Assembly (NCBI GenBank): GCA_934502885.1
Contig: CAKSUT010000010.1
Coordinates: 19,307-83,306, forward strand
Reading direction: 5' to 3'
From: an uncultured Eubacteriales bacterium
GTDB taxonomy: Bacteria > Bacillota > Clostridia > Oscillospirales > CAG-382
DNA: 64,000 bases
Below the pieces are notes generated by a model that was given only the letters and a program-made list of their open reading frames with translations, was not told the DNA's origin and searched no databases. Positions 14,293 to 64,000 of the stretch are shown here, piece by piece. Both the position numbers and the translations under genes were made by a program. How positions within the stretch are numbered: the first letter of the stretch is position 1; each line of letters starts with the position of its first letter.

Positions 14293-14586
14293 TTACATCA
14301 TGCTGTCGAAGAACTCGATTGTCTTCGAACCTGCTGTAAGCTTTACTATTGCCTTTTTCCACTCGGAAGTTGAACCCATATGATAACCGACTCTCTTGGG
14401 CTTGGACTTCATAACGATTGTGTTGACCTTTTCAACATCCACCTTAAAAAGCTCCTCAACCGCCTTCTTGATTTCGGGCTTGCTTGCGGACTTCTCGACC
14501 TCGAAGGTATAAACCTTGCCGCCGAGTCTTTCCATGCTCGCTTCGGTTATAATCGGGCGGATAATTACGTCATGTGCAGTTTTCAT
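14293..14586 (-). CDS. rplW: 50S ribosomal protein L23
   Basis: 97-aa ORF starting [15 protein letters not shown], between rplD and rplB. Confidence 0.95.
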
Positions 14587-16348: not shown

Positions 16349-16449
16349 TTTTTCTGCCTCCTTTAAAAATTTTGCTCTTCGACGTTCTTCGGATCTCCCG
16401 AACAAGGCTTGATATAATAAAGTCGAAGAAAGATTTAAATGCGACACAG

Positions 16450-16959
16450 AAAATTCTGAACACTCAGCCGGGCGTTTCTTAAAACACCCGAAAGAAAACC
16501 GAAGCTTCTTTCCTCGTTACGCATGAATAAAATGTTCACACGGTAGTGACGGGAAAGAACTCCGGGAATGAGCTTCGTAAATCCCCAGCATTTTAACGAC
16601 GCCGCACAAAGCGCATAGCGCAGCGGTCCTTCGCACAGTATTACAGGCGCATCGGCGCACGCACCGACCGTCCCCGAAGGAACTGTTTGGCTGGGATTCA
16701 AAGCCGATCGCACGGCAGAGTCGCGGTGTTGCAGAGGCTCGCTTGAAAGAACCCCGCACCGAAACACCAATCCGTCCGTTTTGCGGCTCAGTATTTGCTG
16801 TCGCCCGGTTATCGGACATACTCCACGGAAATTACCGTCCAAAGGACGCAACCTCCCGCTTCATCGCACATCAAGCCTGGATATTGTACCACATCTCGCT
16901 TCTCAAAGCAACGGTATGCGGAGAATCTTTTGTAAACTTTTGGTGAACGAAGATAAAGT
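16450..16959. other. Unassigned ORF-free, hairpin-rich region upstream of the S10 operon (candidate leader or structured RNA; identity unknown)
   Basis: No protein-like ORF in any frame. There are many local GC-rich inverted repeats, for example CGTCCTTTGGACG, GCGCTATGCGC and GGTGTT..AACACC. It has no match to the repeat family found elsewhere in the window. Confidence 0.25.
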
Positions 16960-17789
16960 TATGTCGTTCCTTCGGAACGAGTGAAGTGCAAGCTGCGCTT
17001 GCGTGAAGTGACGGCTTCGCCGTCGTGATGTGTTGCTTCGCAACGTTGGGGTGGAAAAGCTGCGCTTTTCTTCATTAATTGTATGGTGCTGATTTATAGG
17101 CTGTGCGATGACGGGAAAGAAAGGCAGAATTCATAATGCATAATGCATAATTCATAATTCATAATTCATAATTCATAATTGACGTTGAAAAGCTTCGCTT
17201 TTCTTCAATATTTGAATGGTGCTTATCGTTTGCCGCTTTCCTACGGTGCGATATACATAACCGTGCGTGCGGTTCATGCTACAAAGTGCCATGGAGAGAT
17301 GCTAACCTCGAGCTTTGCACTCTCAATAAAGCTTGATTTTCACCGAATCCCCCATAAGTAAGCACAAATCTCAAGCTTCGCACCACCCAAGAACCTTATC
17401 TTCGTAAAATTTTATCGTGTGCGAAGTGTGCTGAGCACGCAATAAATTTTGCGAACGGTGTTGCCCCGAATTACAGTCCCAACAGAGTCTGATGCGAAGT
17501 AAATCTAAGTCGGTCGCTTGAATTTATGGCGACCGACTTGCGTACTATATTCGATTAGATGAGTCTTTGCTTCCCTTCGACGGAGGCTTAGCCGATGTCG
17601 AACGGTACTTTCTCCAATATATCGAGAACTTCCCATTTCAAAACGCAGTTTTGAAATCGATAAAGTTCTTTTGGCGAAAGCCGCTTTGCGGCGTCGCACG
17701 TTTCTTTCAAGAAAAGGACATATCCTCGCGTTCTTTGGTTCTTTCTTTCAAGAAAAGGACACCATCGTAATCTACGCCCGTCGGAGACC
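16960..17789 (-). repeat. Hairpin-chain repeat array R2 (near full length, reverse orientation; leader/M1 end faces the glucokinase stop)
   Basis: Reverse complement of the 57436-58376 module order. M1-type palindromes at 17698-17721 and 17748-17772, M2 at 17635-17657, M5 at 17507-17539, a heptamer tract at 17128-17180, and the terminal CCCGTCGGAGACC at 17777-17789. Confidence 0.85.
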
Positions 17790-17804
17790 TTTCGTATGCC
17801 TCGC

Positions 17805-32143: not shown

Positions 32144-32825
32144 CGGCGTGGGGACGATGGGTCTCCGACGGCTTCTTTTCTTGTAAGAAAAGAAGCAAAA
32201 GAACTTTATCGATTTCAAAGCTAACGCTTTGAAATGAAAAGTCTTTTGTTTAATTTGGGGATAGTGCCGCGTTCGGTGCGCATATATGCGCACCATATGT
32301 GCAAGCGACCGAACGAGATGAGGCAGACTCATCTAATCGAATACAGTACAGCGACCCGACGCCATATATGCAAGCGTCGGGTCGTGATTTTTTTGCATCA
32401 GACTTTGTGGGGACTAAACTTTTTGCGCTCGTCCGTTCGCAAAATTTATTGCGTGCTTCGCACACGATTAAATTTTACGAAGACGAGGTTCTTGGGTGGT
32501 GCGTGATTTGGGGTTAGCGCTTTCTCATTGGTGTTGTGTGGAGGCGTCGCAGACGCGAGAGAAATTGCGAAGCAGTTTACTCTCGAGTTGGCTCTGCCAA
32601 CTCCGGAGGCATCCCCTGTGTAACCGGTTGCAGAGCAACCTATGGAGCTGTCACGACGTAGTCGTCAGACTGAGGGGCTGTCGAGATAGAGTAACCAACA
32701 CACGGTTATGTATATCTCCCCATAGAACCGCAACAACCGACAAGCACCGTACAATCAACGAAGAAAGAAACCCGGCGACAGTGAAGAAGCTTTTTTGCGC
32801 GTCCCTTTACGACGTGATGTGATGT
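32144..32825 (+). repeat. Hairpin-chain repeat array R3 (forward)
   Basis: G-rich leader plus GGTCTCCGACGG, M1 variant GCTTCTTTTCTTGTAAGAAAAGAAGC (32171-32196), M2 (32212-32235), two M5-type hairpins, GAGAAATTGCGAAGCAGTTTACTCTC and CTGAGGGGCTGTC. Confidence 0.85.
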
Positions 32826-32972: not shown

Positions 32973-35900
32973 ATGAAATCGGTAAAAGCTTTGGCAGACA
33001 AAAAATGCTTGTGTAAAGGTATGCGCAAAAGACTTGCGGCGTTTATTACGGTTGCCGCTATGATTGTTTCGGCGTTTTCCGCCGAAGGGTTCACATTTGC
33101 CGCCGATGACGAAAGCAACGCTCCGACCCTGGCAGTCGTAGATTACTACGCGGAAAATCTTGCCGCCGCAGGAGCGTACAATTTCGAGCTTCGTCCGCAG
33201 TTCGGCGACAAAGTTCCTTTCGGCAAAGGCAGAAATTACGACTGCTACTATCCGCAGGGGTGCGGACAGCAGAGACCTGAGGTGTATGTGTGGGAATCCG
33301 CTGCAATTTCCGTCGCAGACCCGTTTTTGAAAATTGTACCCAAGAAGCCGAGAGTGTCGTTTACTTTCGATACTTTCAAGCAGAATATGTATTTCGACTA
33401 CGGAAAACCGTATTTTACACTCGTTTTGAAAGCAAATAAGACGTTCAACAGCTACATTACCGTGAAAACGCTTAACTCGGCTTATCAGAAAAAGTGGTAC
33501 GTTAAATTCACCGGCGGATGGCAGAAGATTATACTGGACTTCGCCGAGGTTGACGGCTGGATGAAAAAAGACGAAAACGGCGAATATGTGCCGTCCGATG
33601 TCACGCCTTTCGGCGACAAAATCAACAAGCTCTACGGCGGAATGGCGTTCGAGCTCCCCGGAAGCAGCTCTTGCTCGGAGCTTCTTGTCGATTATATTGC
33701 AATGTTCCCGACTTTAGAGGGAGCGGAGAGCTTTGAAAGTATCGGTTCGGTTGAGGTCAAGGACACGGCAGTGGGACTTCTCACCGACGAAAAAGAGCCG
33801 CCCATGCCCGAGGTCGCGCAGTACAAGCAGAAGCTTGACGCCGCAGGGGCATACAACTTTGAGCTTCGTCCGCAGTTCGGAAATAAGATTCCGTTCGGCA
33901 GAGGCAGAAATTACGACTGCTACTATCCTCAGGGCAGCGAGCATACAAGACCTGAAATTTATCCGTGGGGAAGTGCGGAAGTCGAGGTTTCCGATAAGTT
34001 CGTCAAGATTGTACCGAAGCTGAAAAATGTAAGCATCACTTTCGATACCTTCCCGACATCGTTTCTCATGGACTACTCAAAGCCGTATTTTACGATGGTT
34101 CTGAAGACCGACCGCGCATTTGAGGGAACAATCCGCATAAAAACGCTCGACGCCAAGTATCAAAAGACCTGGAACGTAACCTTCACCGGCGACTGGCAAA
34201 AGATTATTCTCGATTTTGCCGACACAAACGGCTGGGAACAAAAGGGTGACGACGGACTCTATATTCCCGTTGCCGTGACTCCGTTCTGCGCCGAGATAAA
34301 CAAGCTGTACGGCGGCTTCGCTTTTGCCGTTCCCGGAACGGAGAAGTGTTCCGAGTACCTTTTCGACTACATTGCGATGTTCCCGACCCTCGACGCCGCT
34401 GAAAAATTTGACGGCATAGGTATAACCGATGTTAAAAATACCTCCATCGGAACGGTCGGAGAATTGAAGCTGTCGATTCTTTCGGCAAAGTACAGAGACC
34501 TTATCGTTTTCATGCGAGGCTACAGCGACGGTACGTTCAGACCGAATATGGCGATGACAAGAGCCGAGGTGTGTGCGGCAATTGCCCGTCTTATGGCAAC
34601 GGAACAGAAGATTGCCGAAACGAAAACGTCCGCTTATCCCGACATCAAGGACACTGACTGGTACGCAAGCTACGTGGCGTTTCTCGAAAAAGAGGGCGTG
34701 CTTGACGAGTTTACGGGCGAATTTCATCCGAACAACAGCATAACAAGAGCGGAATTCGTAGGCTTGCTGTTTGCCGCACGCGGGTTTGTCGAGGCGGTAA
34801 ATACCCCGGACGGCTTTTCCGATGTCGGAGAGACGACGAAATTCGCAAAAGCAATATATGCGGCAAGCAGTGCCGGCGTCGTCAGCGGCTATGCCGACGG
34901 CACATTCAAGCCCGACAAGGCACTCAGCCGTGCGGAAATTGCGGTTATTTTGTCGAGGCTTCTCGATATAAAGCCTATGAAAGACGAAAAACAGATGTTC
35001 AGCGACCTTGATAAATCATTCTGGGGGTACGGAGAAATCATGGCAGTTATAATTCCAAATTCACTTAAAATCGACACCGAGAAGACAAAAACGGTTCTCG
35101 CCGAGGTTGATGAAAAAGCAAAAGCACTCAAAAAGAGCATTACCGAAACAAAGACTGAGGTAGTAGTTAAGGGTACAAAGTACTATGTCGCCGCAGACGG
35201 CAACGACGCAAACGACGGCAAGAGTCCCGAAAAAGCATGGAAGTCTATCGCAAAGGTTTCAGAGACTGCATTTGAAAACGGCGACGGAGTTTTCTTCAAG
35301 AGGGGCGATACTTTCAGAGTCAACAGCAGACTCCTTCTCAAGAACGGCGTTACGTACTCCGCATACGGCGACGGCGCAAAGCCCATAATCACTGCGTCGC
35401 CGGAAAACGTCGCAAATCCCGACAAGTGGGAGCTTTACGACGCCGCAAACAATATCTGGTGCCTTAAGGAAAAGGTGCTTGACCAAGGTACGCTTATCTT
35501 CGACGACAGCGAATATGCGATAAAGCTCATACCGTCGTTCAAGGGCGGAAAGTTCGTAAACGACGCCGGGGAAGAGTTCAAGCCGTCCGCCGAGCTTAAA
35601 AACGACCTCGAAATGTTCTGCGAAACAAACGAAAACCTCAAAGCAAACGGCGTTCCGAACGTCACCGTAAGCAAAGGCAAGCTCTACTTAAAGTGCGACA
35701 GAGGAAATCCCGGCAGCGTGTTCAAATCCATAGAGCTTATGCCTCCGACGAACATAATGGTGGCAGGCACGGAGGATTATATGCTCACCGACGTTACGAT
35801 AGACAACCTCAGCTTAAAGTACACGGGCGCTCACGGCATACACGCACAGAGAGGAACGAACTATCACATTCAGAACTGTGAGTTCCGCTTTATCGGCGGC

Positions 35901-36566
35901 GGTATTCAGAGCTATGATGTCTATGCGAACAATATCGGCGCCGCAGTGCGCTACGGCAACGGCGTCGAGATCGGCGACTGCGACGGCTACTATATACAGA
36001 ACTGCTACTTCTCCGACATTTACGACACGGCAATGACCTTCCAGTCGCGCGACGGCCGCAACGACCGTACCATAAAAGACATTTACTTCGAGGGCAACCT
36101 GATTGAGAACTGCGTGTACTCGGTTGAGTGCTTCTGGGGCAGTGCCAAGACTGAGGGTGTTGACAGATACGTCGAGAATTTCTTTATCAGAAACAACATC
36201 ATGCGCAACGCCGGAAGCGGCTTCGGAAGCACGCGTCCCAATAAGCAGGAGGTTGCGCACATCAAGACGTGGAACGCTTACAACAAGGTCAAGGACAAGT
36301 CGTTTATCATTGAAAACAACATTTTCGACCGCAGCTCTTACATGATGTTCCACACCTGCGTAAGAGACGCCGAAAACCTCGATTCCGTACCGGTGTTCAG
36401 AAACAACACGTTTATACAGTACATTTCCTCCGACGACAACACCGCCTCCCTCGGCAAGTTCGGCAAAATAACCGTTGCACAGCCGTACAATGCGGATATT
36501 CCCACAACGCTGAAAATGTTCGGTATCTCCGAAGAGAACGGCAATGAGTTCCTGTTTGCGGAGTAA
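32973..36566 (+). CDS. Secreted cell-surface protein with 2x N-terminal ~230-aa repeat, 3 SLH motifs and a C-terminal right-handed parallel beta-helix domain (paralog 1)
   Basis: 1197-aa ORF. Signal-like MRKRLAAFITVAAMIVSAFSAEG gives an alternative start at 33021. SLH motifs GYSDGTFRPNMAMTRAE, FHPNNSITRAEF and GYADGTFKPDKALSRAE. The beta-helix region has repeated NC.F..IGGG, GNG.E and N.I.N-type turns. Confidence 0.85.
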   Translation: MKSVKALADKKCLCKGMRKRLAAFITVAAMIVSAFSAEGFTFAADDESNAPTLAVVDYYAENLAAAGAYNFELRPQFGDKVPFGKGRNYDCYYPQGCGQQRPEVYVWESAAISVADPFLKIVPKKPRVSFTFDTFKQNMYFDYGKPYFTLVLKANKTFNSYITVKTLNSAYQKKWYVKFTGGWQKIILDFAEVDGWMKKDENGEYVPSDVTPFGDKINKLYGGMAFELPGSSSCSELLVDYIAMFPTLEGAESFESIGSVEVKDTAVGLLTDEKEPPMPEVAQYKQKLDAAGAYNFELRPQFGNKIPFGRGRNYDCYYPQGSEHTRPEIYPWGSAEVEVSDKFVKIVPKLKNVSITFDTFPTSFLMDYSKPYFTMVLKTDRAFEGTIRIKTLDAKYQKTWNVTFTGDWQKIILDFADTNGWEQKGDDGLYIPVAVTPFCAEINKLYGGFAFAVPGTEKCSEYLFDYIAMFPTLDAAEKFDGIGITDVKNTSIGTVGELKLSILSAKYRDLIVFMRGYSDGTFRPNMAMTRAEVCAAIARLMATEQKIAETKTSAYPDIKDTDWYASYVAFLEKEGVLDEFTGEFHPNNSITRAEFVGLLFAARGFVEAVNTPDGFSDVGETTKFAKAIYAASSAGVVSGYADGTFKPDKALSRAEIAVILSRLLDIKPMKDEKQMFSDLDKSFWGYGEIMAVIIPNSLKIDTEKTKTVLAEVDEKAKALKKSITETKTEVVVKGTKYYVAADGNDANDGKSPEKAWKSIAKVSETAFENGDGVFFKRGDTFRVNSRLLLKNGVTYSAYGDGAKPIITASPENVANPDKWELYDAANNIWCLKEKVLDQGTLIFDDSEYAIKLIPSFKGGKFVNDAGEEFKPSAELKNDLEMFCETNENLKANGVPNVTVSKGKLYLKCDRGNPGSVFKSIELMPPTNIMVAGTEDYMLTDVTIDNLSLKYTGAHGIHAQRGTNYHIQNCEFRFIGGGIQSYDVYANNIGAAVRYGNGVEIGDCDGYYIQNCYFSDIYDTAMTFQSRDGRNDRTIKDIYFEGNLIENCVYSVECFWGSAKTEGVDRYVENFFIRNNIMRNAGSGFGSTRPNKQEVAHIKTWNAYNKVKDKSFIIENNIFDRSSYMMFHTCVRDAENLDSVPVFRNNTFIQYISSDDNTASLGKFGKITVAQPYNADIPTTLKMFGISEENGNEFLFAE

Positions 36567-36698: not shown

Positions 36699-36825
36699 GC
36701 GTCGCAACTCGAAGTATCATGCGACATTTCACATCAAGCGAAGCGAGATATTCCATACGCTGAAAGCGTATTTACGCATTCCGTTAGGAATGCATTTCAC
36801 GCTTTGCGCCGTGCCTTGCAAAATC
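36699..36825 (+). repeat. Hairpin-chain repeat fragment R4
   Basis: TCATGCGACATTTCACATCAAGCGAAGCGAGATATT..CATTCCGTTAGGAATGCATTTCACG matches 63465-63570. Confidence 0.7.
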
Positions 36826-36917
36826 CCACCCTATTTTAAAAAAATACACCATAGATTTTTATGGAAAAGACGTGTATAATAGTGACGAAAACACAACCGA
36901 CGAAAGGAAATACTGCA

Positions 36918-39758
36918 ATGATGAAGAAAATTCTTGCAGCGGTGCTTCTTGCCACCATCGCTCTCACCGGTGTTCCGACTTTTACCGCGTTCTCGGCAGA
37001 TGAAACAATGCCCGAGGTCGAATACTACAAGGAACGGCTCTCCGACGCCTTTGTTTATGAACTGCGTCCCGAAAAGGGGGACGAAATACCGTTCGGCAAG
37101 GGAAGGTACATCGACTGCTACTACCCAAGAGGCTGCGGTCAGGATCGCCCGGAGTTTTACACATGGGGAAGCGGAAAAATAGGTGTCGAGGGGCACTACG
37201 TCAAGTTTTCCCCCGGAAAGAGCGACGAGATGTCTGTGACATTTGACACCTCGCCGAAGAGCTATTACATGGACTACTCAAAGCCGTTTTTCACCTTTGC
37301 CGTAAAGGCGGACAATGCGTTCGACGGATTTATCACGTTCAGAACTCTCGACGGAAAGTATATGAAAACCTGGAGCGTCAATTTCACGGGAAAGTGGCAG
37401 AAGGTGATTCTCGACTTCTCCGATAAGAACGGCTGGACATTAAAGAACGCCGACGGAGAATACACACCCGTCTACGCAACGCCTTTCAGCAATGAGGTAA
37501 ACTCTCTTTTCGGCGGTCATGCGATGAGGCTTGCCGGCACGGAGAAGTGTTCGGAGTATCTTTTCGACTACATGGCGATGTTTTCAACTCTTGAGGAGGC
37601 TCAAAACTTCACGGGTCTTGCCGATATCGAAAGCACTTCCGTTCCCGAAGCCGTGGTTGTGCGGTCGGTTCTTGACGCAAAGTCGAGAAAGCCAATTGTA
37701 TTCATGAGCGGCTACCCCGACGGCACATTCAAGCCGAACAAGGGCATGACGAGAGCGGAGGCGTGTACGGTTCTTGCGCGTCTTATGGGCAGTGAGACGG
37801 AGATTTCCGAAAGAGTTTCAAGCGGTGCCGCCTCACGTTTTACCGACATTAAGCCCGACGCATGGTATTACAGGTACATAGCGTTTCTCGACGGCAACGG
37901 AGTCCTCAGTGATTTCGACGGCGAGTTTTGCCCGAACGCCCCGATAACCCGTGCGGAATTTGTGGGAATGCTTCTTGCGGCAAAGGGATTTTCCGAAACA
38001 GTACCGACGGGAACATTTACCGATGTGAAAGAGGATACGCCGTTTTCGTCCGCAATATATTCGGCAAGCAGTGCCGGCGTCGTCAGCGGCTATGCCGACG
38101 GCACATTCAAGCCCGACAAGGCACTCAGCCGTGCGGAAATTGCGGTTATTTTGTCGAGGCTTCTCGATATAAAGCCTATGAAAGACGAAAAACAGATGTT
38201 CAGCGACCTTGATAAATCATTCTGGGGGTACGGAGAAATCATGGCAGTTATAATTCCAAATTCACTTAAAATCGACACCGAGAAGACAAAAACGGTTCTC
38301 GCCGAGGTTGATGAAAAAGCAAAAGCACTCAAAAAGAGCATTACCGAAACAAAGACTGAGGTAGTAGTTAAGGGTACAAAGTACTATGTCGCCGCAGACG
38401 GCAACGACGCAAACGACGGCAAGAGTCCCGAAAAAGCATGGAAGTCTATCGCAAAGGTTTCAGAGACCGCATTTGAAAACGGCGACGGCGTATTCTTCAA
38501 GAGAGGCGATACCTTCAGAGTCAACGGCAGACTCCTTCTCAAGAACGGCGTTACGTACTCCGCATACGGCGAGGGCGAAAAGCCGATAATCACGGCGTCT
38601 CCCGAAAACGGTGCAAATCCCGACAAGTGGGAGCTTTACGACGAAGAAAACAAGGTCTGGCGTTACACAACGAAGATGAAAGACCAGGGAACTCTCGTGT
38701 TCGACGGCGGAAAGGTATGTGCGGCAAAGCTCACTCCGGATTTTAAAGGCGGAAAGTTTATCGACAACTCCGGGAACGCATTCACCTCGGCGAATATGAA
38801 GAACGATCTTGAGCTTTTCTGCGACACGGTTGACGGAGTGACATCGTATCCGAACCCCCGAACCACTCTCGGCTACATTTACTTAAGGTGCGAAAGCGGA
38901 AATCCGGGCGAGGTGTTCGAGTCGATAGAATTCATGCCGTCCGACCACATAATGAAAGCGGGTACGGCCGACGACAGGCTTCGCAGCGTTACGATAGACA
39001 ATCTGGATGTGCGTTACGGCGGTGCTCACGGAATACATTGCAGTGCGGCGTCGGATTACACGGTGCAGAACTGTGTTTTCGAGTACATCGGCGGCGGTGT
39101 GCAGAGCTACACGCTGACAAGCACGGCAGGACGTCCCGTGAGATACGGCAATGCGGTTGAGCTGGGAACGTGCGACGGATTCACGGTAAAGAACTGCTAC
39201 ATAAACGAAATCTACGACGCCGGACTTACCTTCCAGACGGGCAGCGGAGCGGTTGACGAGTGCGTAAAAAATGTGACCTTTGAGGGCAACCTCATCGAAA
39301 ACTGCACGTATTCCGTAGAGTGCTTCATGGGCAAACCGAAGACCGAGGGAGCGGACAAGCACATCGAGAATTTCCTTGTGAAGGACAACATCATGCGTTT
39401 TGCCGGCTGCGGCTTCGGAAACACACGCCCCGACAAGGCAAATGTTGCGCACATCAAGACATGGAACAACTACAACAAGGTAAAGGACAGAAGCTTTGTA
39501 ATTGAGGGCAACACCTTTGACCGCAGTACGTACATGATGTTCCACATAGGCGTAAACGACGAGGCGAACCTCGATTCCATGCCGATAATGAGAAACAACC
39601 TTTTCGTGCAGACGCTGACGACAAGCGAAAACTCCGCCTCTCTCGGCATTTTCGGCGTCGGAACCGACAGAAAGCCATACGATGCAAGCATTCCGAATTT
39701 CCTCAAGGAGTTCGCTGTTCTCGAGTCGGACGGCAACGTATTTCTGTTTGCGGAGTAA
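36918..39758 (+). CDS. Secreted SLH-domain / beta-helix surface protein (paralog 2; one N-terminal repeat)
   Basis: The ORF-track frame is 36861..39758. The likely start is MMKKILAAVLLATIALTG at 36918, after GAAAGGAAA. The architecture matches paralog 1, and it shares a 406-bp identical tract with it. Confidence 0.85.
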   Translation: MMKKILAAVLLATIALTGVPTFTAFSADETMPEVEYYKERLSDAFVYELRPEKGDEIPFGKGRYIDCYYPRGCGQDRPEFYTWGSGKIGVEGHYVKFSPGKSDEMSVTFDTSPKSYYMDYSKPFFTFAVKADNAFDGFITFRTLDGKYMKTWSVNFTGKWQKVILDFSDKNGWTLKNADGEYTPVYATPFSNEVNSLFGGHAMRLAGTEKCSEYLFDYMAMFSTLEEAQNFTGLADIESTSVPEAVVVRSVLDAKSRKPIVFMSGYPDGTFKPNKGMTRAEACTVLARLMGSETEISERVSSGAASRFTDIKPDAWYYRYIAFLDGNGVLSDFDGEFCPNAPITRAEFVGMLLAAKGFSETVPTGTFTDVKEDTPFSSAIYSASSAGVVSGYADGTFKPDKALSRAEIAVILSRLLDIKPMKDEKQMFSDLDKSFWGYGEIMAVIIPNSLKIDTEKTKTVLAEVDEKAKALKKSITETKTEVVVKGTKYYVAADGNDANDGKSPEKAWKSIAKVSETAFENGDGVFFKRGDTFRVNGRLLLKNGVTYSAYGEGEKPIITASPENGANPDKWELYDEENKVWRYTTKMKDQGTLVFDGGKVCAAKLTPDFKGGKFIDNSGNAFTSANMKNDLELFCDTVDGVTSYPNPRTTLGYIYLRCESGNPGEVFESIEFMPSDHIMKAGTADDRLRSVTIDNLDVRYGGAHGIHCSAASDYTVQNCVFEYIGGGVQSYTLTSTAGRPVRYGNAVELGTCDGFTVKNCYINEIYDAGLTFQTGSGAVDECVKNVTFEGNLIENCTYSVECFMGKPKTEGADKHIENFLVKDNIMRFAGCGFGNTRPDKANVAHIKTWNNYNKVKDRSFVIEGNTFDRSTYMMFHIGVNDEANLDSMPIMRNNLFVQTLTTSENSASLGIFGVGTDRKPYDASIPNFLKEFAVLESDGNVFLFAE

Positions 39759-39879: not shown

Positions 39880-39963
39880 ATGTACAATGCGGACATTCCC
39901 GCGACGCTGAAAGTGTTCGGCATCTCCGAAGAGAACGGCAACGTATTCCTGTTTGCGGAGTAA
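39880..39963 (+). pseudogene. Relic 3' end of a further SLH/beta-helix paralog
   Basis: Translates to MYNADIPATLKVFGISEENGNVFLFAE*. Paralog 1 ends PYNADIPTTLKMFGISEENGNEFLFAE*. It is preceded by the same about 68-bp post-terminator junction seen at 36624-36690. Confidence 0.75.
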
Positions 39964-40086: not shown

Positions 40087-41181
40087 ATGAAATTAGGTAT
40101 AGTCGGACTGCCGAATGTCGGCAAAAGCACGCTTTTCAACGCGATAACAAACGCGGGCGCCGAGGCGGCGAACTACCCGTTCTGCACGATTGACCCGAAC
40201 GTCGGCATTGCGCCCGTTCCCGACAAGAGACTCGACGTTCTCGCCGAGATGTACAACCCCGAGAAGTACACGCCGGCGGTGATTGAATTTGTTGACATTG
40301 CGGGTCTTGTCAAGGGTGCGTCGCACGGAGAGGGTCTCGGCAACAAGTTTTTGTCGCACATTCGCGAGGTTGACGCCATTGTACACGTTGTCCGCTGTTT
40401 TGAAAATTCCGACATTATTCATGTCAACGGCAAGGTTGACCCGGCGAGCGACGTTGAGACGATAAATCTTGAGCTTGTGTATTCCGACATTGAAATTCTC
40501 GAGCGCAGGCTCGACCGTGCAAAGAAGACTCTCAAAGGAGACAAGTCCGCGCAGCGTGAAATTGACCTTATAGAGAAGCTTCTTGCGGCTCTCAACGAGG
40601 GCAAAAGTGCGAGAACTCTCGACTTTACCGAAAGTGAGCGTGAGCTTCTTGCGGACATACCGCTTCTGAGCCTCAAGCCGGTAATTTACGCCGCGAACAT
40701 AGACGAAGAGAACATAGCCGCCGACCCCATGGAGAATCCGCACTACGTTGCGCTCAAGAAGATTGCCGACGCGGAGCATTCCGAGATAATTGTAATCTGC
40801 GCCGAAATCGAGGCGGAGATAGCGCAGCTTGAGCCGGAGGAGAGAAAGGAATTTCTCGCCGACCTCGGACTTTCCGAGTCGGGACTCGACCGTCTTGTCA
40901 AGGCAGGCTACAAGCTTCTCGGTCTTATCAGCTACCTCACTGCAGGACCTAAAGAGGTTCGCGCGTGGACGATCGAAGAGGGTACAAAAGCTCCTCAGGC
41001 GGCAGGAAAGATTCACTCCGACTTCGAGAAAGGCTTCATCAGAGCGGAGGTCATTGCGTTCGACGACCTCGTCGCCTGCGGCTCGGTCAACGCCGCCAAG
41101 GACAAGGGTCTCATGCGAAGCGAGGGTAAAGACTACGTCATTAAGGACGGCGACGTCGTCCTCTTCAGATTTAACGTGTGA
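40087..41181 (+). CDS. ychF: Ribosome-binding ATPase YchF (Obg family)
   Basis: The ORF-track frame is 40057..41181. The likely start is [19 protein letters not shown] at 40087, after AAGGAG. Confidence 0.95.
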
Positions 41182-41657
41182 CGAGGGGACGAGGGGGCTA
41201 CGAAGGCGAAGATTACGAGGGTGTCCTTTTCTTGAAAGAAAAGGACCAAAAGAACTTTGTCGATTTCAAAACTGCGTTTTGAAATGGGAAGTCTTTTGTA
41301 TAATTTTGAGGTTATACCGCACGACGTCGTCAAAAGGCGGACTCCGTCGTGAAGTGAGCAAGGACTCATCTAATCGAACAGAATACGCAAGTCGGCGACC
41401 ATATATTCAAGTCGCCGACTTGCGTATTTTCTCGGATTATGGTGCTGATTTGACAGTCCCTCAGTCACGGCAAGCCGTGACAGCTCCATAGGTTGCTCTG
41501 CAACCGGTTACACAGGGGAGCCTCGTGAGCGGCTCCGCCCGCTCACTCCAAGACACCCATCCTGCAAAGCGTAAGCTTTGCTTTTGAAGTTCTTTTGGTC
41601 CTTTTCTTTCAAGAAAAGGACACCATCGTAATCTACGCCCGTCGGTCAATCCTTTTG
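41182..41657. mobile_element. Hairpin-chain repeat R5: MITE-like copy bounded by 48-nt terminal inverted repeats, filling the convergent ychF / SLH-3 spacer
   Basis: The left TIR (41210-41257) and right TIR (41587-41634) are reverse complements with one mismatch (AGATTACGA[G/T]GGTGTCCTTTTCTTGAAAGAAAAGGACCAAAAGAACTT). The interior is M2, M3, M5 and the GACAGTCCCTCAGTC modules. No ORF. Confidence 0.7.
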
Positions 41658-46984: not shown

Positions 46985-48690
46985 TTTATATAATTGAGAA
47001 TGGAGAATTGAGAATTGATGTCGAAAAACGCTGAAGCGTTTTTCGGCAATTGAGAATTGAAAGTGGAGAATGGAGAATTGATGTTGAAAAACGCTGAAGC
47101 GTTTTTCTTCATTAAAAAATTATATGGTGCGTATTTTGAGGCTGTGCGATAAAGGGAAAGCGGATTTTTGACGAGGGTATGGGTGTTTGAGGTAATACGA
47201 TTATTCCGAACCTCGTTGGTGTGTTGTAGGGAACGGGCTTGCTCGTTCCGAAAACCTCAGACAATTGCCAACATCGGATAATGCGCACTTGCAATAATCT
47301 TTTGCCGGTTTTCTACATGGTGACATACATAACCGTGCGTGCGGTTCTTGCGGACGGAGCAATCTACGCAGATGCTTCGCATCCTGTGTGTCCCTACGAT
47401 ACACCATGGAGAAAGTGCAAATCTCAAGCTTCGCACTACCCAAGAACCTTATCTTTGCGGAATTTAAACGTGGCGGCTTTTTCGTCGCTTTAAATTCCGC
47501 AAACGGTGTTTCCCACAAATTACTGTCCCAACAAAGCCTGATGCCAATGTTCCATTCGACCGAGACTTCGTCGAGGTTGAACGGAATATCCTCTGATACG
47601 CACAGTCCGCTTCATCTAAGTCGGCGACTTGCGTTTATGGTCGCCGACTTCGGCAGTGCCTTTAAATATAGTGCTTGTCCGACAGTCCCTCAGTCTGACG
47701 ACTACGTCGTGACAGCTCCGGAGGTTTCTTTGCAACCGGTTGCACAGGGGATGCCTCCGGAGTTGGCAGAGCCAACTCGAGAGTAAATTGCTTCGCAATT
47801 TCTCTCGCGACTTTGTCGCCTCCAATACACCCAAGAGGAAGTGCCAATCTCAAGCTTCGCACTACCCAAGAACCTTATCTTTGCGGAATTTAAACGTGGC
47901 GGTTTTTTCGTCGCTTTAAATTCCGCAAACGGTGTTTCCCACAAATTACTGTCCCAACAAAGCCTGATGCCAATGTTCCATTCGACCGAGACTTCGTCGA
48001 GGTTGAACGGAATATCCTCTGATACGCACAGTCCGCTTCATCTAAGTCGGCGACTTGCGTTTATGGTCGCCGACTTCGGCAGTGCCTTTAAATATAGTGC
48101 TTGTCCGACAGTCCCTCAGTCTGACGACTACGTCGTGACAGCTCCGGAGGTTTCTTTGCAACCGGTTACACAGGGGATGCCTCCAATGCTGTCCCCGAGA
48201 GAAAGAGCTTATCCGACAGTCCCTCAGTCAGCTTCGCTGACAGCTCCCCTTACACAGGGGAGCCTCGGCGTCTGCGACGCCTCCAATACACCCAAGAGCA
48301 AGTGCAAACCTCAAAATTCGCACAAACCAAAAAGCTCATCTTTCCGTAATTTGTCGTCGAACGAAGTGAGGTACAAATTTCGGGAACGGGAGAAGGTAAA
48401 AATTACATTCCCCGCAAAGCCTGAAGCCAACCTCATCTTCGACCGAGACTTCGTCGAGGTTGAACGGAATATCCTCTGATACGCACAGTCCGCCCCATCT
48501 AAGTCGGCGACTTGCGTTTATGGTCGCCGGCTTCGGTATATCCTCCGATTACACAAAAGACTTTTCATTTCAAAGCGATAGCTTTGAAATCGATAAAGTT
48601 CTTTTGGTACTTTTCTTTCAAGAAAAGTACACCCCCGTAAGCCCCTGCGGCGAGCAGCCCCCGTAACCTTCGCCGTCAGTGCCCCTCCGT
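46985..48690 (-). repeat. Hairpin-chain repeat array R6 (reverse orientation, about 1.7 kb, internally amplified)
   Basis: Starts with GAGAATG/GAGAATT heptamers and GAAAAACGCTGAAGCGTTTTTC hairpins. It ends with M2 (48567-48590), M1 GTACTTTTCTTTCAAGAAAAGTAC (48607-48630) and the C-rich complement of the leader. Confidence 0.85.
47415..48184. repeat. Tandem direct duplication (period 426 bp) inside R6, with a third diverged copy at about 48297-48540
   Basis: 47415-47758 and 47841-48184 are near identical, with about 3 mismatches by eye. This also shows as duplicated ORF-track peptides (MWETPFAEFKATKKPPRLNSAKIRFLGSAKLEI twice). Confidence 0.85.
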
Positions 48691-52634: not shown

Positions 52635-53313
52635 GGGCGAGGGTCACGGGAGGTCTCCGACGGGCGTAGATTACGATGGTGTCCTTTTCTTGAAAGAAAA
52701 GGACCAAAAGAACTTCAAAAGCAAAGCTTACGCTTTGCAGGATGGGTGTCTTGGAGTGAGCGGGCGTAGCCGCCAGAGAAATTGCGAAGCAATTTACTCT
52801 CGAGTTGACCGTGTCAACTCCGGTGGCTCTGCCAACTCCGGAGGCATCCCCTGTGTAACCGGTTGCAGAGCAACCTATGGAGCTGGCACGACGAAGTCGT
52901 CGGACTGAGGGGCTGTCAAATCAGCACCATAATCCAAGAAAATACCGCGTTCGGTGCGCATATATGCGCGCCATAAACGCAAGTCGCCGAACGAAATGGG
53001 GCAAGGACTCATCTAATCGAATAGAATACGAAAGTCGGTCGCCATAAATTCAAGCGACCGACTTCGGTATTATCTCAGATAAGCACTGTCCAAAGGCTTC
53101 CCTTCGACCGAGGCGTTGCCGAGGTTGTTGTGCAGCAAGCTGCACGAAAGTAAATGCTTCGCAAGCTCGCATTTCTTTCCGCGTCCTACATAAGCTTAGA
53201 CTTAATCCTGCAAAACGCAGTTTTGAAATCGATAAAGTTCTTTAGCGAAAGCAACAAAGTTGCGTCGCCTGAAAGCAACTTTGTTGCGTCGCACGTTTCT
53301 TTCAAGAAAAGTA
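52635..53313. mobile_element. Hairpin-chain repeat R7: second copy bounded by inverted M1 ends, in a convergent spacer
   Basis: The left end CCGACGGGCGTAGATTACGATGGTGTCCTTTTCTTGAAAGAAAAGGACCAAAAGAACTT (M1 at 52681-52704) is the reverse complement of the R5 right end. A degenerate inverted M1 lies at 53293-53313. The interior is collinear with the reverse complement of R5 plus extra modules. Confidence 0.7.
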
Positions 53314-54602: not shown

Positions 54603-55816
54603 TTACGATGGGTCTCCGACGCCTTCTTTTCTTGAAAGAAAAGAAGCAAAAGAACTTTTGCCGATTTCAAGGCTATCGCCTTGAAATGAAAAGTCTTTTG
54701 TATTGTTTGGAGAAATACCGCACGACATCGTCAACGACTCCGTCGTGAAATGGGCAAGACTCATCTTATCCGAGGTCGGAGCGTTCAACCTCGACGAGGT
54801 CTCGGTCGAAGGTGAGGTTGGCATCAGATTTTGTGGGGAATGTATCCGAACTTCTCCCGTTCGCAAAATTTATTGCGTGCTCAGCACACTTCGCACACGA
54901 TAAAATTTTACGAAGATATGGCTTTTGGGTGGTGTGCGTGATTGAAATGCGTACTTGCTCACGGATGTATTAGAGTGAGTCGGCGAAGCCGCTCACGAGG
55001 CTCCCCTGTGTAAGGGGAGCTGGCGGTGAAACCGCCTGAGGGGCTGTCGGATAAGCACTCTCTCAATGGTGTAGCATAGCAACTGCGAAGCTGACTGAGG
55101 GACTGTCGGATAAGCATTCTCTCCATGGCATTTTGTAGGGACACACAGGATGCGAAGCATCTGCGTAGATTGCTCCGTCCGCAAGAACCAAACGCACGGT
55201 TATGTATACCGCACCGTAGAAATGCGGCAAACGATTATTGCAAATGCGTATTATCCGATGTCGGCGGTTATCGGAGATTTCGGAACGAGCAAGCCCGTTC
55301 CCTACAAAATGTCAAAGAGGTTTGCAATAAAATCGTATTATCGCAAACATCAAAAAACTCGGATAAAAACTATAATCAACAGCCCCTCAGTCAGCTTCGC
55401 TGACAGCTCCCCTTGCACAGGGGAGCCTCGGCGACGAGGTCGCCTCCAATAATACCATGGAGATAGTACGAATTCTGAAAATCTCACCCCCAACACCCTC
55501 GGCGAAAATCCGGCATTCCGTTATCGCACACCCTCAAACTCCGCACCATTCAAATATTGAAGAAAAGCGAAGCTTTTCAACGTCAATTATGCATTATGCA
55601 TTATGAATTATGAATTCTGCCTTTCTTTCCCTTTGCCGCACACCCTCAAAGTCCGCACCATACAATTATTGAAGAAAAGCGCAGCTTTTCTACCTTTTCT
55701 CTTCACTCTTCACTCTTCACTCTTCTCTCTTAACTTGAAAAGCTCCGCTTTTCAACACCAATTTTCCATTCTCCACTTTCAATTCTCAATTCTTGAAAAG
55801 CGAAGCTTTGCTTTGC
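54603..55816 (+). repeat. Hairpin-chain repeat array R8 (forward, about 1.2 kb) between araD and the AraM-like gene
   Basis: GGTCTCCGACG, M1 variant CTTCTTTTCTTGAAAGAAAAGAAG (54623-54646), M2 variant ATTTCAAGGCTATCGCCTTGAAAT (54664-54687), then M3 through the heptamer tracts (55584-55617, 55698-55730). The terminal GAAAAGCGAAGCTTTG overlaps the araD 3' end. Confidence 0.85.
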
Positions 55817-57438: not shown

Positions 57439-58376
57439 CAGGCGAGGGCTTACGAAGGTACGGGGGGACGGGAGTGTCCTTTTCTTGAAAGAAAAGGACC
57501 AAAAGACGCAGGGTTATGTACTTTTCTTGAAAGAAAAGTACCAAAAGAACTTTATCGATTTCAAAGCTATCGCTTTGAAATGGAAAAGTCCTCGATATAT
57601 TAGAGAAAGTACCGCATTCGGTCGCCATAAATTCAAGCGACCGAATGAGATGAGGCAGGACTCATCTTATCCGAGGTCGGAGCGTTTAAGCTCGGCAACG
57701 CCTCGCTCAAAGGGAACATTGGCATCAGGCTTTGTGGGGACTGTAATCCGGGGCAACACCGTTTGCGGAATTTAAAGCGACGAAAAAGCCGCCACGTTTA
57801 AATTCCGCAAAGATGAGGTTTTTGGGCGGTGCGAAGCTTGAGATTGGCACTTCCTCTTGGGTGTTTCATGGAGGAGGCGAAGCCGCCAGAGAAATTGCGA
57901 AGCAATTTACTCTCGAGTTGGCTCTGCCAACTCCGGAGGCATCCCCTTGTGTAACCGGTTGCAAAGCAACCTCTGGAGCTGGCGGTGAAACCGCCTGAGG
58001 GGCTGTCGGATAAGCACTTTCTCAATGATGTAGCAGAAAAATTAAACAATCCCTCAGTCAGCTTCGCTGACAGCTCCCTTTACACAAGGGAGCCTCGGCG
58101 ACGGAGTCGCCTCCAATAATACCATGGAGGTAATACAAATTTCGCACAACCACAAACACCAATACCCTCGGCAAAAATCCGGCATTCCGTCAACGGCACA
58201 ACCTCTGACTCGCACCATACAAATTATTGAAGAAAAACGGCGCAAGGCGTTTTTCTACCACTTCTCTTCACTCTTCACTCTTCACTCTTCTCTCTTAACT
58301 TGAAAAGCTCCGCTTTTCAACCCCAATTCTCCATTTTCCATTCTCAATTCTCAATTTTTGAAAAGCGCAGCTTTCG
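57436..58376 (+). repeat. Hairpin-chain repeat array R9 (forward; used here as the reference copy)
   Basis: Fills the whole DeoR-HAD spacer, from the stop codon to about 35 nt before the HAD start. Module list is given in the findings. Confidence 0.9.
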
Positions 58377-59218: not shown

Positions 59219-61610
<2,392 letters not shown>

Positions 61611-62850: not shown

Positions 62851-63669
62851 CGACGCAGGGAGCTTACGGGGGCTGACGCCGCAGAACGACTGACAATTGA
62901 CGATTGACGATTGACGATTACGGAGCTGCTCGCCGCAGGGGCGTCTGCGACACGTTACTTTCTTAAAAGAAAGTAACCAAAGAACTTTATCGATTTCAAA
63001 GCTATCGCTTTGAAATGAAAAGTCCTTTACGCAGTTTGGAGAAAGCACCGTTCAACCTCGGCAACGCCTCGGTCGAAGGGGAGCAAGGACTCATCTAACC
63101 GAATACAGTACGGCGACCCGACGCCATATATGCAAGCGTCGGGTCGTGATTTTTTTGGCTTCAGGCTCTGTTGGGACTGTATCCGGACTTCTCCCATTCG
63201 CAAAATTTATTGCGTGCTTCGCACACGATAAAATTTTGCGAAGATGAGGTTTTTGGGTGGTGCGTTGTTTGAAGTTAGCACTTTCTTATGGGTGTTGTCC
63301 GGAGGTAGCGGAGCTACCGAGGCGCCCCTGTGTAAGGGGAGCTGGCGGCTTTGCCGCCTGAGGGGCTGTCAATATGTGATTATGTATACCTCCCCGCAGA
63401 ACCGCAACAATCGGTAAGCACCATACAATCAATGCAGAAAACCGCCTTTCGGCGGTTTTCGACCCTAACGTCGCGACACGAAGTGTCATGCGACATTTCA
63501 CATCGAGCGAAGCGAGATATTTCACGCATTCCGTTAGGAATGCATTTCACGTGTTCCGCAAGGAATACCTTTCACTTGAAAAGCAAAGCTTTGCCACAAG
63601 CTTTGCTTTTCTTCCTCTTCTCTTCACTTTTCCCTCTTCTCTCTTCACTTGAAAAGCTCCGCTTTTCAC
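62851..63669 (+). repeat. Hairpin-chain repeat array R11 (forward), in the convergent SGNH / SpoIIE spacer
   Basis: Leader with GACGATT heptamers (62893-62921), M1 variant GTTACTTTCTTAAAAGAAAGTAAC (62954-62977), M2 (62993-63016) and M5 CGACCCGACGC..GCGTCGGGTCG. The terminal TGAAAAGCTCCGCTTTTCA overlaps the SpoIIE stop. Confidence 0.85.
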
Positions 63670-64000
63670 CTCACCCTCACCGCCACGACCGACATATCGT
63701 CGTCGTGAATGCCGAGAGAGCGCGCCTTGGCGAGGATAGCTGACGCGAGCTTTGAGATATCCTCGTTCACGTTGAAGCCGAGAATCTCGGCAAGCCACGG
63801 CGTATTGTCAAAGTTTTCGGTAATACCGTCCGAGAGCAAGAGAATAACGTCGCCCGAGTGGAGAGAAAAGGACGTGTTCTCGGCGGAAAACGCGCCGATT
63901 ATACCTGCCGGCGGCGTTTCGGAGGATATCTTGTAGAGCTTCGCCGACCTGACGACGTATGCCGGCGCGGCGCCTGCCTTGATGAACGACGCCTTTGAAT
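63666..64000 (-). CDS. SpoIIE-like PP2C-type phosphatase, C-terminal part (5' end outside the window)
   Basis: Not in the ORF track because it is edge-truncated. My translation is SKASFIKAGAAPAYVVRSAKLYKISSETPPAGIIGAFSAENTSFSLHSGDVILLLSDGITENF..LGIHDDDMSVVAVRVR*. The pattern matches the SpoIIE/PP2C C-terminus (FIK.G, SDGI, DDM[ST]VV). Confidence 0.7.
   Translation of the reverse strand, partial: SKASFIKAGAAPAYVVRSAKLYKISSETPPAGIIGAFSAENTSFSLHSGDVILLLSDGITENFDNTPWLAEILGFNVNEDISKLASAILAKARSLGIHDDDMSVVAVRVR

Follow-up and report, generated by a model that had tools for sequence, protein, structure and literature searches.

The 64,000-nt stretch analysed here (the window; contig CAKSUT010000010.1 of an uncultured Eubacteriales bacterium) carries chains of short hairpin modules between its genes, three of which, designated M1, M2 and M5, are the main subject of this analysis. 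The window is a Clostridia-like chromosomal stretch containing the S10/spc ribosomal operon, grpE-dnaK-dnaJ, rpoB/rpoC and genes for several SLH-domain proteins. Exact copies of the YchF and RpsJ proteins encoded in the window were confined to human-gut metagenome assemblies (Hadza and other samples), and the closest named relatives of YchF, with 84% identity, were labelled 'Ruminococcaceae/Oscillospiraceae bacterium'. The region singled out by an earlier note on this DNA (41223–41423) lies within a 476-nt spacer of two convergent genes, bordered by the stop codon of ychF (41179–41181) and by that of a gene coding for a 976-amino-acid SLH/beta-helix protein (stop at 41658). An alpha arm of modules after ychF faces a beta arm after the convergent gene, and the spacer contains the following features:

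41185–41222, forward strand: G-rich repeats of the TACGRGGG type (M0), from the ychF stop codon to M1, read directly
41223–41246, forward strand: M1 hairpin GTCCTTTTCTT-GA-AAGAAAAGGAC, with 11-bp arms and a 2-nt non-palindromic centre
41247–41262, forward strand: conserved linker CAAAAGAACTTTGTCG
41263–41285, forward strand: M2 hairpin ATTTCAAAAC-TGC-GTTTTGAAAT
41320–41351, forward strand: slot A cassette hairpin, CACGAC..GTCGTG around a small inner hairpin
41363–41378, forward strand: conserved single-stranded linker GACTCATCTAATCGA
41386–41424, forward strand: M5 hairpin CGCAAGTCGGCGAC-CATATATTCAA-GTCGCCGACTTGCG, with a T-rich tail at 41425–41433
41440–41597, reverse strand: beta arm, read leftwards from the M1 at 41621
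41598–41621, reverse strand: second M1, inverted

Since the alpha arm faces the beta arm, the two M1 copies, together with M0 and the linker, make an inverted repeat of approximately 53 nt, one half of which lies at 41205–41258. The beta arm is the reverse complement of 52700–52930 and contains the hairpin GCAAAGC-TTAC-GCTTTGC (41564–41581) and a CCCTCAG..CAGCTCC module (approximately 41455–41530). In other copies the slot A position holds alternative hairpin cassettes, and the M0 motif is also found ahead of M1 at 52640, 57440, 59215, 62850 and, on the reverse strand, 17790.

Nine intergenic regions of the window are filled by such chains of hairpin modules (arrays), which recur in the same order over 0.4–2 kb. 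The arrays occupy 7.5 of the 64 kb (approximately 12%), exclusively between genes, and 23% of the related contig L029; perfect hairpins are 5.7 times denser within them than within coding sequence. The order of modules is G-rich TACGGGGG repeats (M0), M1, the linker CAAAAGAAC and then an alpha or a beta arm. The alpha arm comprises M2, a cassette hairpin, GACTCATCT, a second cassette (e.g. M5), GGCATCAG..GGGACT, a long hairpin and, at its end, AAGATGAGGTT, and retains this architecture and its length (283–309 nt) while its helices vary, whereas the beta arm has a different set of modules. Past the arms lie A-tract/hairpin/T-tract units, heptamer tandem repeats and tandem units of ACTTCAC plus a 15-nt hairpin. 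Modules occur in both orientations inside single arrays, joined by fixed linkers in a mosaic fashion. Inverted M1 ends bound the stretches 41205–41640 and 52663–53310, the other nine arrays having a single M1 end. Besides the ychF spacer, the arrays are:

16960–17790, reverse strand: array that follows a ROK kinase gene and precedes the promoter of the S10 operon, with hybrid M1, insertion-type M1, M2, M5, terminator-like hairpins and Gut-1-like units
32150–32800, forward strand: array in which a CTTC-type M1 and M2 occur with an M5 variant, CGACCCGACGC, that has a T7 tail
46990–48640, reverse strand: long array with an internal 426-nt tandem duplication and a GTAC-type M1 at 48607–48630
52663–53310, no single strand: beta arm (forward) facing an alpha-like arm (reverse) between convergent genes, with M1 at 52681 (forward) and insertion-type M1 at 53296–53309 (reverse)
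54605–55790, forward strand: array beginning at a distance of about 40 nt from a divergent iron-dependent alcohol dehydrogenase (Fe-ADH) gene (counted from its start codon), with CTTC-type M1 and a GGC-stem M2
57465–58365, forward strand: array with a tandem M1 pair (GTCC, GTAC), M2 and an M5-like cassette in slot A
59264–59950, forward strand: array with GTTC-type M1 and, at its end, tandem units of ACTTCAC plus hairpin
62943–63670, forward strand: array whose M1 is of the GTTAC type; the other strand has a Gut-1-like stretch (63478–63552)

The earlier note had stated that the stems of M1, M2 and M5 differ between copies and yet remain complementary. All coordinates that it gave for copies of these modules were correct, and the pattern itself was confirmed for each of the three. 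The M1 core (TTTCTTGAAAGAAA) occurs 13 times in the window with at most one mismatch, compared to a chance expectation of 0.07, and none of 100 shuffles reached this number. M1 is an 11-2-11 palindrome with the centre GA, in which the outer four to five pairs vary (GTCC, GTAC, CTTC, GTTC and GTTAC with their complements). All distinct copies in the window and in same-lineage contigs, imperfect M1 copies included, entered the count of pairs. Among 18 distinct M1 haplotypes, 91.9% of the cells were paired as against 79.2% after shuffling (0 of 500 shuffles equal), and both sides had changed at 7 of the 11 pairs. For M5, in 18 distinct copies, 98.0% of the cells were paired (72.2% when shuffled; 4 cells unpaired), with both-sided change at 8 of 11 pairs and one-sided change at none, and the inner and outer parts of its stem assorted independently. 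M2 behaved likewise: only two of its pairs vary within the lineage, one from A-T to G-C and the other from G-C to A-T, and each change is compensated. Some details of the note needed adjustment. The M5 loop CATA[TA]AT[TG]CAA does not apply throughout, since CATAAACGCAA takes its place in three copies (47617, 48044 and 48501). Three further M1 copies in the window, absent from the note's list, depart from the pairing rule: at 17701–17714 and 53296–53309 (both reverse strand) the 5' arm (GTCC and GTAC, respectively) is intact and an inserted hairpin CGTGCGACGC..CTTTCGC stands in place of the 3' arm, and at 17742–17755 (reverse strand) hybrid arms GTCCT/GAAC are mismatched. Mismatched intermediates, about whose frequency the note had asked, are not rare in this lineage, given that 6 of 18 M1 and 4 of 18 M5 haplotypes are imperfect; the mismatched M5 variants are GGCGTC/GCCGCC (T.C), CGACGC/GCGCCG (A.C) and the copy at 48522 (C.A), and some of them have been copied to more than one locus.

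M1 is also found far beyond this genome. A metagenome search pattern in which only the M1 core and the AAAGAAC part of the linker CAAAAGAACTTTGTCG were fixed, leaving both arms free, matched at least 120 contigs, about one match being expected by chance on a rough estimate of the size of the collection. By their record names, the contigs among the matches listed included human-gut assemblies and Ga-numbered JGI contigs, the latter being presumably, to judge by their names, from peat, soil and termite gut. In nearly all of the metagenome matches listed AAAGAAC was followed by TTT. In 92 distinct M1 copies from the matches listed, the four pairs outside the core were 82–100% paired and took every Watson-Crick type, all four being present at three positions, and the covariation score of the outer stem was 0.405, compared to 0.117 for shuffled copies and at most 0.156 for slid partners. 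The second hairpin, which follows the linker, covaries as well (GCGAAAC, GCAAAAC, GGGAAAC, GGGAAGC, GCAAAGC). On Ga-numbered contigs, M1 copies stand head-to-head or as inverted pairs approximately 50 nt apart. This independent sample of 92 copies bears out, more strongly than the window could by itself, what the note had concluded, namely that the hairpin is constrained, or repaired toward, and that the pattern does not stem from dead copies decaying. The opposite case that the note had considered, in which a few clonally copied subfamilies mimic covariation, does fit the window, where M1 has five or six arm types and each of these comes with distinct flanks, but not the wider M1 family.

Comparison of related strains revealed a rapid turnover of the arrays. 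They are absent from L028, which represents the closest other species available (YchF 89% identical), and from L033. Upstream of rpsJ in seven strains, the 620 nt beside the gene are practically identical and the array beyond differs wholesale: modules are replaced, one hairpin is added, and unrelated stems are exchanged between identical linkers (for example GACGGC-GAA-GCCGTC versus GTTTTGC-AAA-GCAAAAC). Identical hairpin cassettes reappear at other loci and in either of two alpha-arm slots. After alaS, contig L029 has a GTCC-type M1 with a beta-like arm (at 14446) and the orthologous position of L030 (at 11822) a GTTC-type M1 with an alpha arm; the two contigs encode an identical YchF (P0002), and whole arrays are thus exchanged between very close strains. 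Hybrid hairpins were found in the window (17749, GTCCT/GAAC), in L034 (GCCGC/GTTGC) and in L085 (GTTCT/AGAAG), with breakpoints at the hairpin centres, and in L113 (1085–1180) one M1 breaks off precisely after TTTCTTGA and runs on into an entire second M1 whose arms differ, at a position where the orthologous L146 (91.6% identical upstream) has a single M1. Recombination within a pool of variants moves both arms of a hairpin together and therefore accounts for much of the paired switching in this lineage; many of the paired switches in this genome are probably swaps of whole hairpin cassettes rather than new double substitutions.

Such turnover also bears on an explanation that involves no selection on the hairpin at all, namely that hairpins are kept up by mutation, through intrastrand template switching and quasipalindrome correction in replication, and that the variants are spread by gene conversion. 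These correction processes are established for quasipalindromes in general, and the strictly Watson-Crick pairing, equal on both strands, the replacement of whole hairpins between identical flanks at very short evolutionary distances and the frequent recombination indicated by the hybrids would all be expected from them. What they leave unexplained is why the loops and loop-proximal pairs are constant when the distal pairs vary, why a G-N-A triloop with a C-G closing pair is preferred (see below), why mismatched variants persist and are copied, and why the 14-nt core of M1 and its 3' linker are kept in contigs apparently from different phyla. We consider mutational upkeep without selection improbable. 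Of the three forms in which the note had suggested that the hairpin could act (RNA, single-stranded DNA or a dimeric protein site), a double-stranded site for a dimeric protein fits worst because the arms vary freely. The 11-2-11 symmetry of M1 with its non-palindromic 2-nt centre, together with the breakpoints at the M1 centre in the hybrids and in the L113/L146 pair, is reminiscent of a recombinase site with a 2-bp crossover at GA, or of the operator of a regulator. A dimer would, however, conserve its half-sites, yet the outer 4–6 bp take all four pair types and still remain complementary; moreover, the copy number is far above operator level and no recombinase gene recurs nearby, making a duplex site very improbable. 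Candidates of this and other kinds were also considered individually: similarity to hix-like sites of serine invertases and dif-like sites of XerS was limited to a short low-complexity stretch, the arms being variable, and both were rejected; a selenocysteine insertion sequence (SECIS) element was rejected given that all three kinds of stop codon are present; and a CodY box was dropped.

The explanation that we favour, and to which we give an even chance, is that M1, M2 and M5 are modules of mosaic intergenic palindromic DNA repeats which act as a folded single strand, with a role at the DNA level in copying, moving or recombining the modules. Each module consists of two parts. One is constant, comprises the loop together with the pairs next to it and a linker on its flank (for example CAAAGAAC), and is presumably read by a protein; the other, the distal stem, is free in sequence provided that its arms pair and would be needed only for folding of the single strand. 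The folded strand would be DNA, extruded or exposed during replication, transposition or recombination, and would be used by whatever machinery copies or moves the modules. We infer that the modules adopt this single-stranded DNA form, that they are mobile and that they have a cognate enzyme. The covariation, the distribution of the modules, the scarcity of wobble pairs, the hybrid hairpins, the variability between strains and the orientation bias are direct observations. They would have accumulated into chains of 0.4–2 kb, attached mostly at the 3' ends of genes, and would be continually reshuffled by recombination with breakpoints at hairpin centres and in short linkers. Most of the paired switches in the window would then be exchanges within a standing pool of already complementary variants, a pool that would have been built over a far longer history of compensated change, of which the wider M1 family would be the visible record.

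The pairing itself favours single-stranded DNA over RNA, without settling the matter, in that wobble pairs are nearly absent. Among the distinct array hairpins of at least 8 bp, 50 were perfect and 11 had a single mismatch (2 G.T, 4 A.C and 5 other), and the outer stem of M1 showed 4 G.T and 4 A.C in 291 cells. A structured cis-acting RNA is expected to have more G.U than A.C pairs, on the transcribed strand only, and a fixed orientation to the gene; the G.T:A.C ratios found were 2:4 and 4:4, with no strand asymmetry, and the orientation of M1 is biased, not fixed. When 41205–41640 was folded as RNA, the two strands did so equally well (−223.2 and −225.8 kcal/mol, z approximately −16.5), and folding as DNA gave a z of −17.2. 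Triloops of the type C(GNA)G or its complement (GNA/TNC) made up 43 of 79 array triloops (54%) as against 23 of 157 (15%) outside arrays (Fisher p = 5e-10), almost all of them closed by C-G. The d(GCGNAGC) motif is known to give extraordinarily stable DNA mini-hairpins, the RNA versions being much weaker (PMC13037366), and of the 79 distinct triloop hairpins in the arrays 41 have C-GNA-G or the complementary sequence at their tip, as does this mini-hairpin described by Hirao and co-workers; M1 (centre GA, loop TGAA) and M5 (11-nt loop) differ from it in using other loops. The natural roles known so far for the motif are at start sites of single-strand replication or transcription, not in dispersed repeats (PMC13037366).

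Function at the RNA level is the rival to be taken most seriously, although we rate it as less likely than the DNA-level role. The modules would here be structured parts of 3' untranslated regions or independent non-coding RNAs (which might block 3' exonucleases, serve as a processing site, stall the terminating ribosome or bind a protein through the hairpin), and the covariation would result from selection on the RNA hairpin. Several observations support this and weigh against a purely DNA-level role. M1 lies downstream of and co-directional with a gene in 15 cases as against 4 in this lineage, and in 43 as against 22 among the metagenome matches listed (p = 0.0125), where a stop codon is often located 5–20 nt ahead of the core. 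On other gut contigs the M1-M2 unit stands between a stop codon and an intrinsic terminator, so that transcription necessarily includes it and it could function as RNA. In one cassette an A.C mismatch is conserved that would be a G.U on the opposite strand, a few U.G pairs are present in the extended helix of M2 when the element strand is read, and three stretches of the window (16979–17051, forward; 63478–63552, reverse; 36721–36802, reverse) match Gut-1 (RF01706), a motif whose description (Weinberg et al. 2010, PMC2864571) drew only on human-gut metagenomes and whose authors rated it as certainly RNA, with 34.7–36.8 bits where the gathering score is 50. The T7 tail of the M5 variant, found only at 32351 and 63107, resembles an intrinsic terminator, and the constant architecture and length of the alpha arm despite its varying helices would also suit an RNA. 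The same arrays provide the counter-evidence. Apart from the scarcity of wobble pairs and the equal folding of the strands, approximately a third of the M1 copies face away from a divergent gene, modules of both orientations share single arrays, the arrays are hypervariable among near-identical strains and absent from close relatives, and the favoured triloop stabilises DNA, not RNA. M1 is followed by CAAAAGAAC and M2 by GAAAAGTC, neither containing the T tract of an intrinsic terminator, and a terminator scan found 22 terminator-like sites where 16.2 were expected.

The DNA-level explanation itself also has to accommodate findings that speak against it. The gene tables of the loci of this lineage contained no transposase or other mobilising enzyme, nor did one recur near M1. 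Among 82 orthologous comparisons there was none with an empty site. The array ends showed no target-site duplication and therefore lack its combination with terminal inverted repeats, around a unit of less than about 600 bp, that defines miniature inverted-repeat transposable elements (MITEs). Finally, an exact 14-nt core in contigs apparently of different phyla is atypical for families of REP sequences, the closest known counterpart.

As for Gut-1, the matching stretches are tandem units of GTGAAAT or GTGAAGT plus a hairpin, each hairpin with its own stem, located inside or beside arrays. In this they resemble the tandem units of GUGAAAU and a CUUCG-loop hairpin in Gut-1, but they score below the gathering score, constitute a module other than M1, M2 and M5, none of which they overlap, and lie on the strand opposite to M1 within the same array, which is a further point against an RNA function of the array as a whole. 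Heptamer repeats and additional units of this kind also appear in the flanks of the published Gut-1 alignment. Gut-1 itself may belong to repeat arrays of this sort as one of their modules and not be a small RNA standing by itself. Against Rfam, the window gave only the S10 leader at gathering score, and at E ≤ 10 there was no hit on M1, M2 or M5.

REP sequences are species-specific, and REPINs are mobilised by RAYT tyrosine transposases. The family described here appears comparable to REP/BIME/REPIN sequences in that its members are short, extragenic, imperfect palindromes of high copy number, mostly just after genes, with fixed linkers, mosaics and units in both orientations, inverted doublets of M1 (41205–41640, 52663–53310 and Ga-numbered contigs), compensated stem evolution and lineage-specific expansion. 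It differs in lacking the GTAG-type 5' head, the constant flank of M1 being on the 3' side (CAAAGAAC) and the sequence 5' of M1 being unrelated between copies outside this lineage. No RAYT or other member of the Y1_Tnp family was present in the gene tables of approximately 250 kb of this lineage, and with the head missing and no RAYT or other enzyme found, we do not count it as a REP family. The chains are also far longer (up to 2 kb), with many hairpin types and interchangeable cassettes. By this comparison, its unusual parts would be the apparent sharing of the M1 core by several phyla and the cassette-like diversity in the gut lineage. BOX elements of Streptococcus pneumoniae and MITEs of the Correia/ERIC type are likewise modular intergenic repeats with stable stem-loops, inserted near gene ends, that can carry terminator-like or promoter-like signals. 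In contrast to these, no unit here is defined by a terminal inverted repeat plus target duplication, modules are shuffled instead of following a fixed A-B-C order, and there is no sequence similarity. Integron attC sites, too, serve recombination, vary in sequence under a conserved fold of the single strand and are placed after the stop codon of the preceding gene; however, R and L boxes (RYYYAAC/GTTRRRY), an integrase and gene cassettes between sites are all lacking here, and attC was dropped. No TnpA/TnpB partner of the IS200/IS605 kind was seen in the loci of this lineage examined.

Gut Clostridia-like contigs have the same M1 core, letter for letter, as at least one contig for which the nearest named homologues come from Alphaproteobacteria (L087, a Ga-numbered contig coding for an RND pump with approximately 60% identity to them). 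Several Paraburkholderia records contain a recognisably diverged form, CGCCCCTGTGCGGGGCG followed by CCTACTTTTCTTTGC-CGCC-GCAAAGAAAAGTAGG-CAAAAGAA, with 38 to 40 or more places on each replicon, and three Ralstonia records have it a single time each. On plasmid 1 of Paraburkholderia caribensis (NZ_CP013104.1; L206, 8930–9560), a 620-bp element has inverted ends of more than 110 nt, each containing a CGCCCC..GGGGCG hairpin, an M1-like hairpin and CAAAAGAA. The M1 core thus appears to be shared by distantly related bacteria, a breadth that rests on the homologues of one contig and on the reading of contig names, and this points to an undescribed hairpin-recognising mechanism rather than to decaying junk. 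We put forward, as a tentative extension that we hold less firmly than the DNA-level role itself, that M1, its 3' linker and the second hairpin are the signature of a phylum-crossing hairpin element, which would imply a conserved trans-acting factor reading the folded single strand beside stop codons. The bacterium of the window would represent an extreme state, in which cassettes are exchanged among dozens of slots and arrays vary from strain to strain, and Gut-1 would be one array module instead of a free-standing small RNA. Since no gene family was found beside M1 in more than five loci (2075 neighbouring open reading frames clustered), M1 is not the end of an autonomous element. Searches with other parts of the arrays returned little: a scan of genome contigs with the M1-M2 linker identified a single related metagenome-assembled genome (CAKSCN01), the other 16 loci being chance matches; a scan of JGI metagenomes with the linker plus M2 gave 0 matches; a scan of viral contigs with the alpha-arm linker (GGCATCAG..TGT.GGGA) gave chance matches only; blast with the whole array found nothing in plasmids and only one module of 45–65 nt in phages; and full-text literature searches with the M1 string and its variants retrieved nothing relevant.

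Further modules and repeats were noted in the arrays. Heptamer tandem repeats (AATTATG/CATTATG, GAGAATT/GAGAATG, CTCTTCA and GACGATT) flank TTGAAAAGC-nnn-GCTTTTCAA hairpins at 17135–17180, 46990–47095, 55585–55615, 55695–55730, 58265–58295, 62895–62920 and 63600–63640; their organisation is conserved and the heptamer varies from site to site. The module CCCTCAG-[variable hairpin]-CAGCTCC-CCT..AGGGGAGC is present at 48215–48311, 55378–55474, 58045–58141 and 59666–59762. The CCCTCAG-hairpin-CAGCTCC module also occurs without M1, M2 or M5 in 31 IMG/VR stretches (L044–L074), with up to approximately 13 copies per contig, where its first hairpin varies and yet pairs (92 Watson-Crick pairs, 1 G.T and 1 A.C) and has TNC loops. 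The copies of the 426-nt tandem duplication (47393–48118) are 97–100% identical, and a third, more diverged copy lies at 48400–48536. RNAalifold, applied to eleven alpha arms, recovered local hairpins only, because the cassettes do not align; by eye, a candidate long-range pairing of CTCATCT with AGATGAG can be seen.

Outside the arrays, one structured RNA was annotated and two further regions attracted attention:

16801–16873, reverse strand: S10-Clostridia leader (Rfam)

Between this leader and the start of rpsJ (16348), some 450 nt (16349–16800, reverse strand) are near-identical in seven strains and contain neither array modules nor an Rfam match; they may be an unusually long conserved leader. 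The two SLH-protein genes at 32973–36566 and 36861–39758 share stretches of 90–94% identity (34815–35114 with 38016–38315, and 36485–36566 with 39882–39963), such that a copy of the 3' end of the first gene sits after the second, which suggests a recent duplication or gene conversion.

If the hairpins are the substrate of a copying or recombining machinery, the arrays would offer a diverse natural set of substrates, and the combination of constant loop and linker with a free stem could help to find that machinery. The apparent cross-phylum core would be unusual for REP-like repeats, and the orphan Gut-1 motif gains a concrete setting from the arrays. That genomes of this gut lineage assemble badly is explained by the breaking of their contigs at the arrays. 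Covariation taken as proof of a functional RNA is a known pitfall, and these arrays provide a test case for separating DNA-level from RNA-level causes of covariation that appears compensatory.

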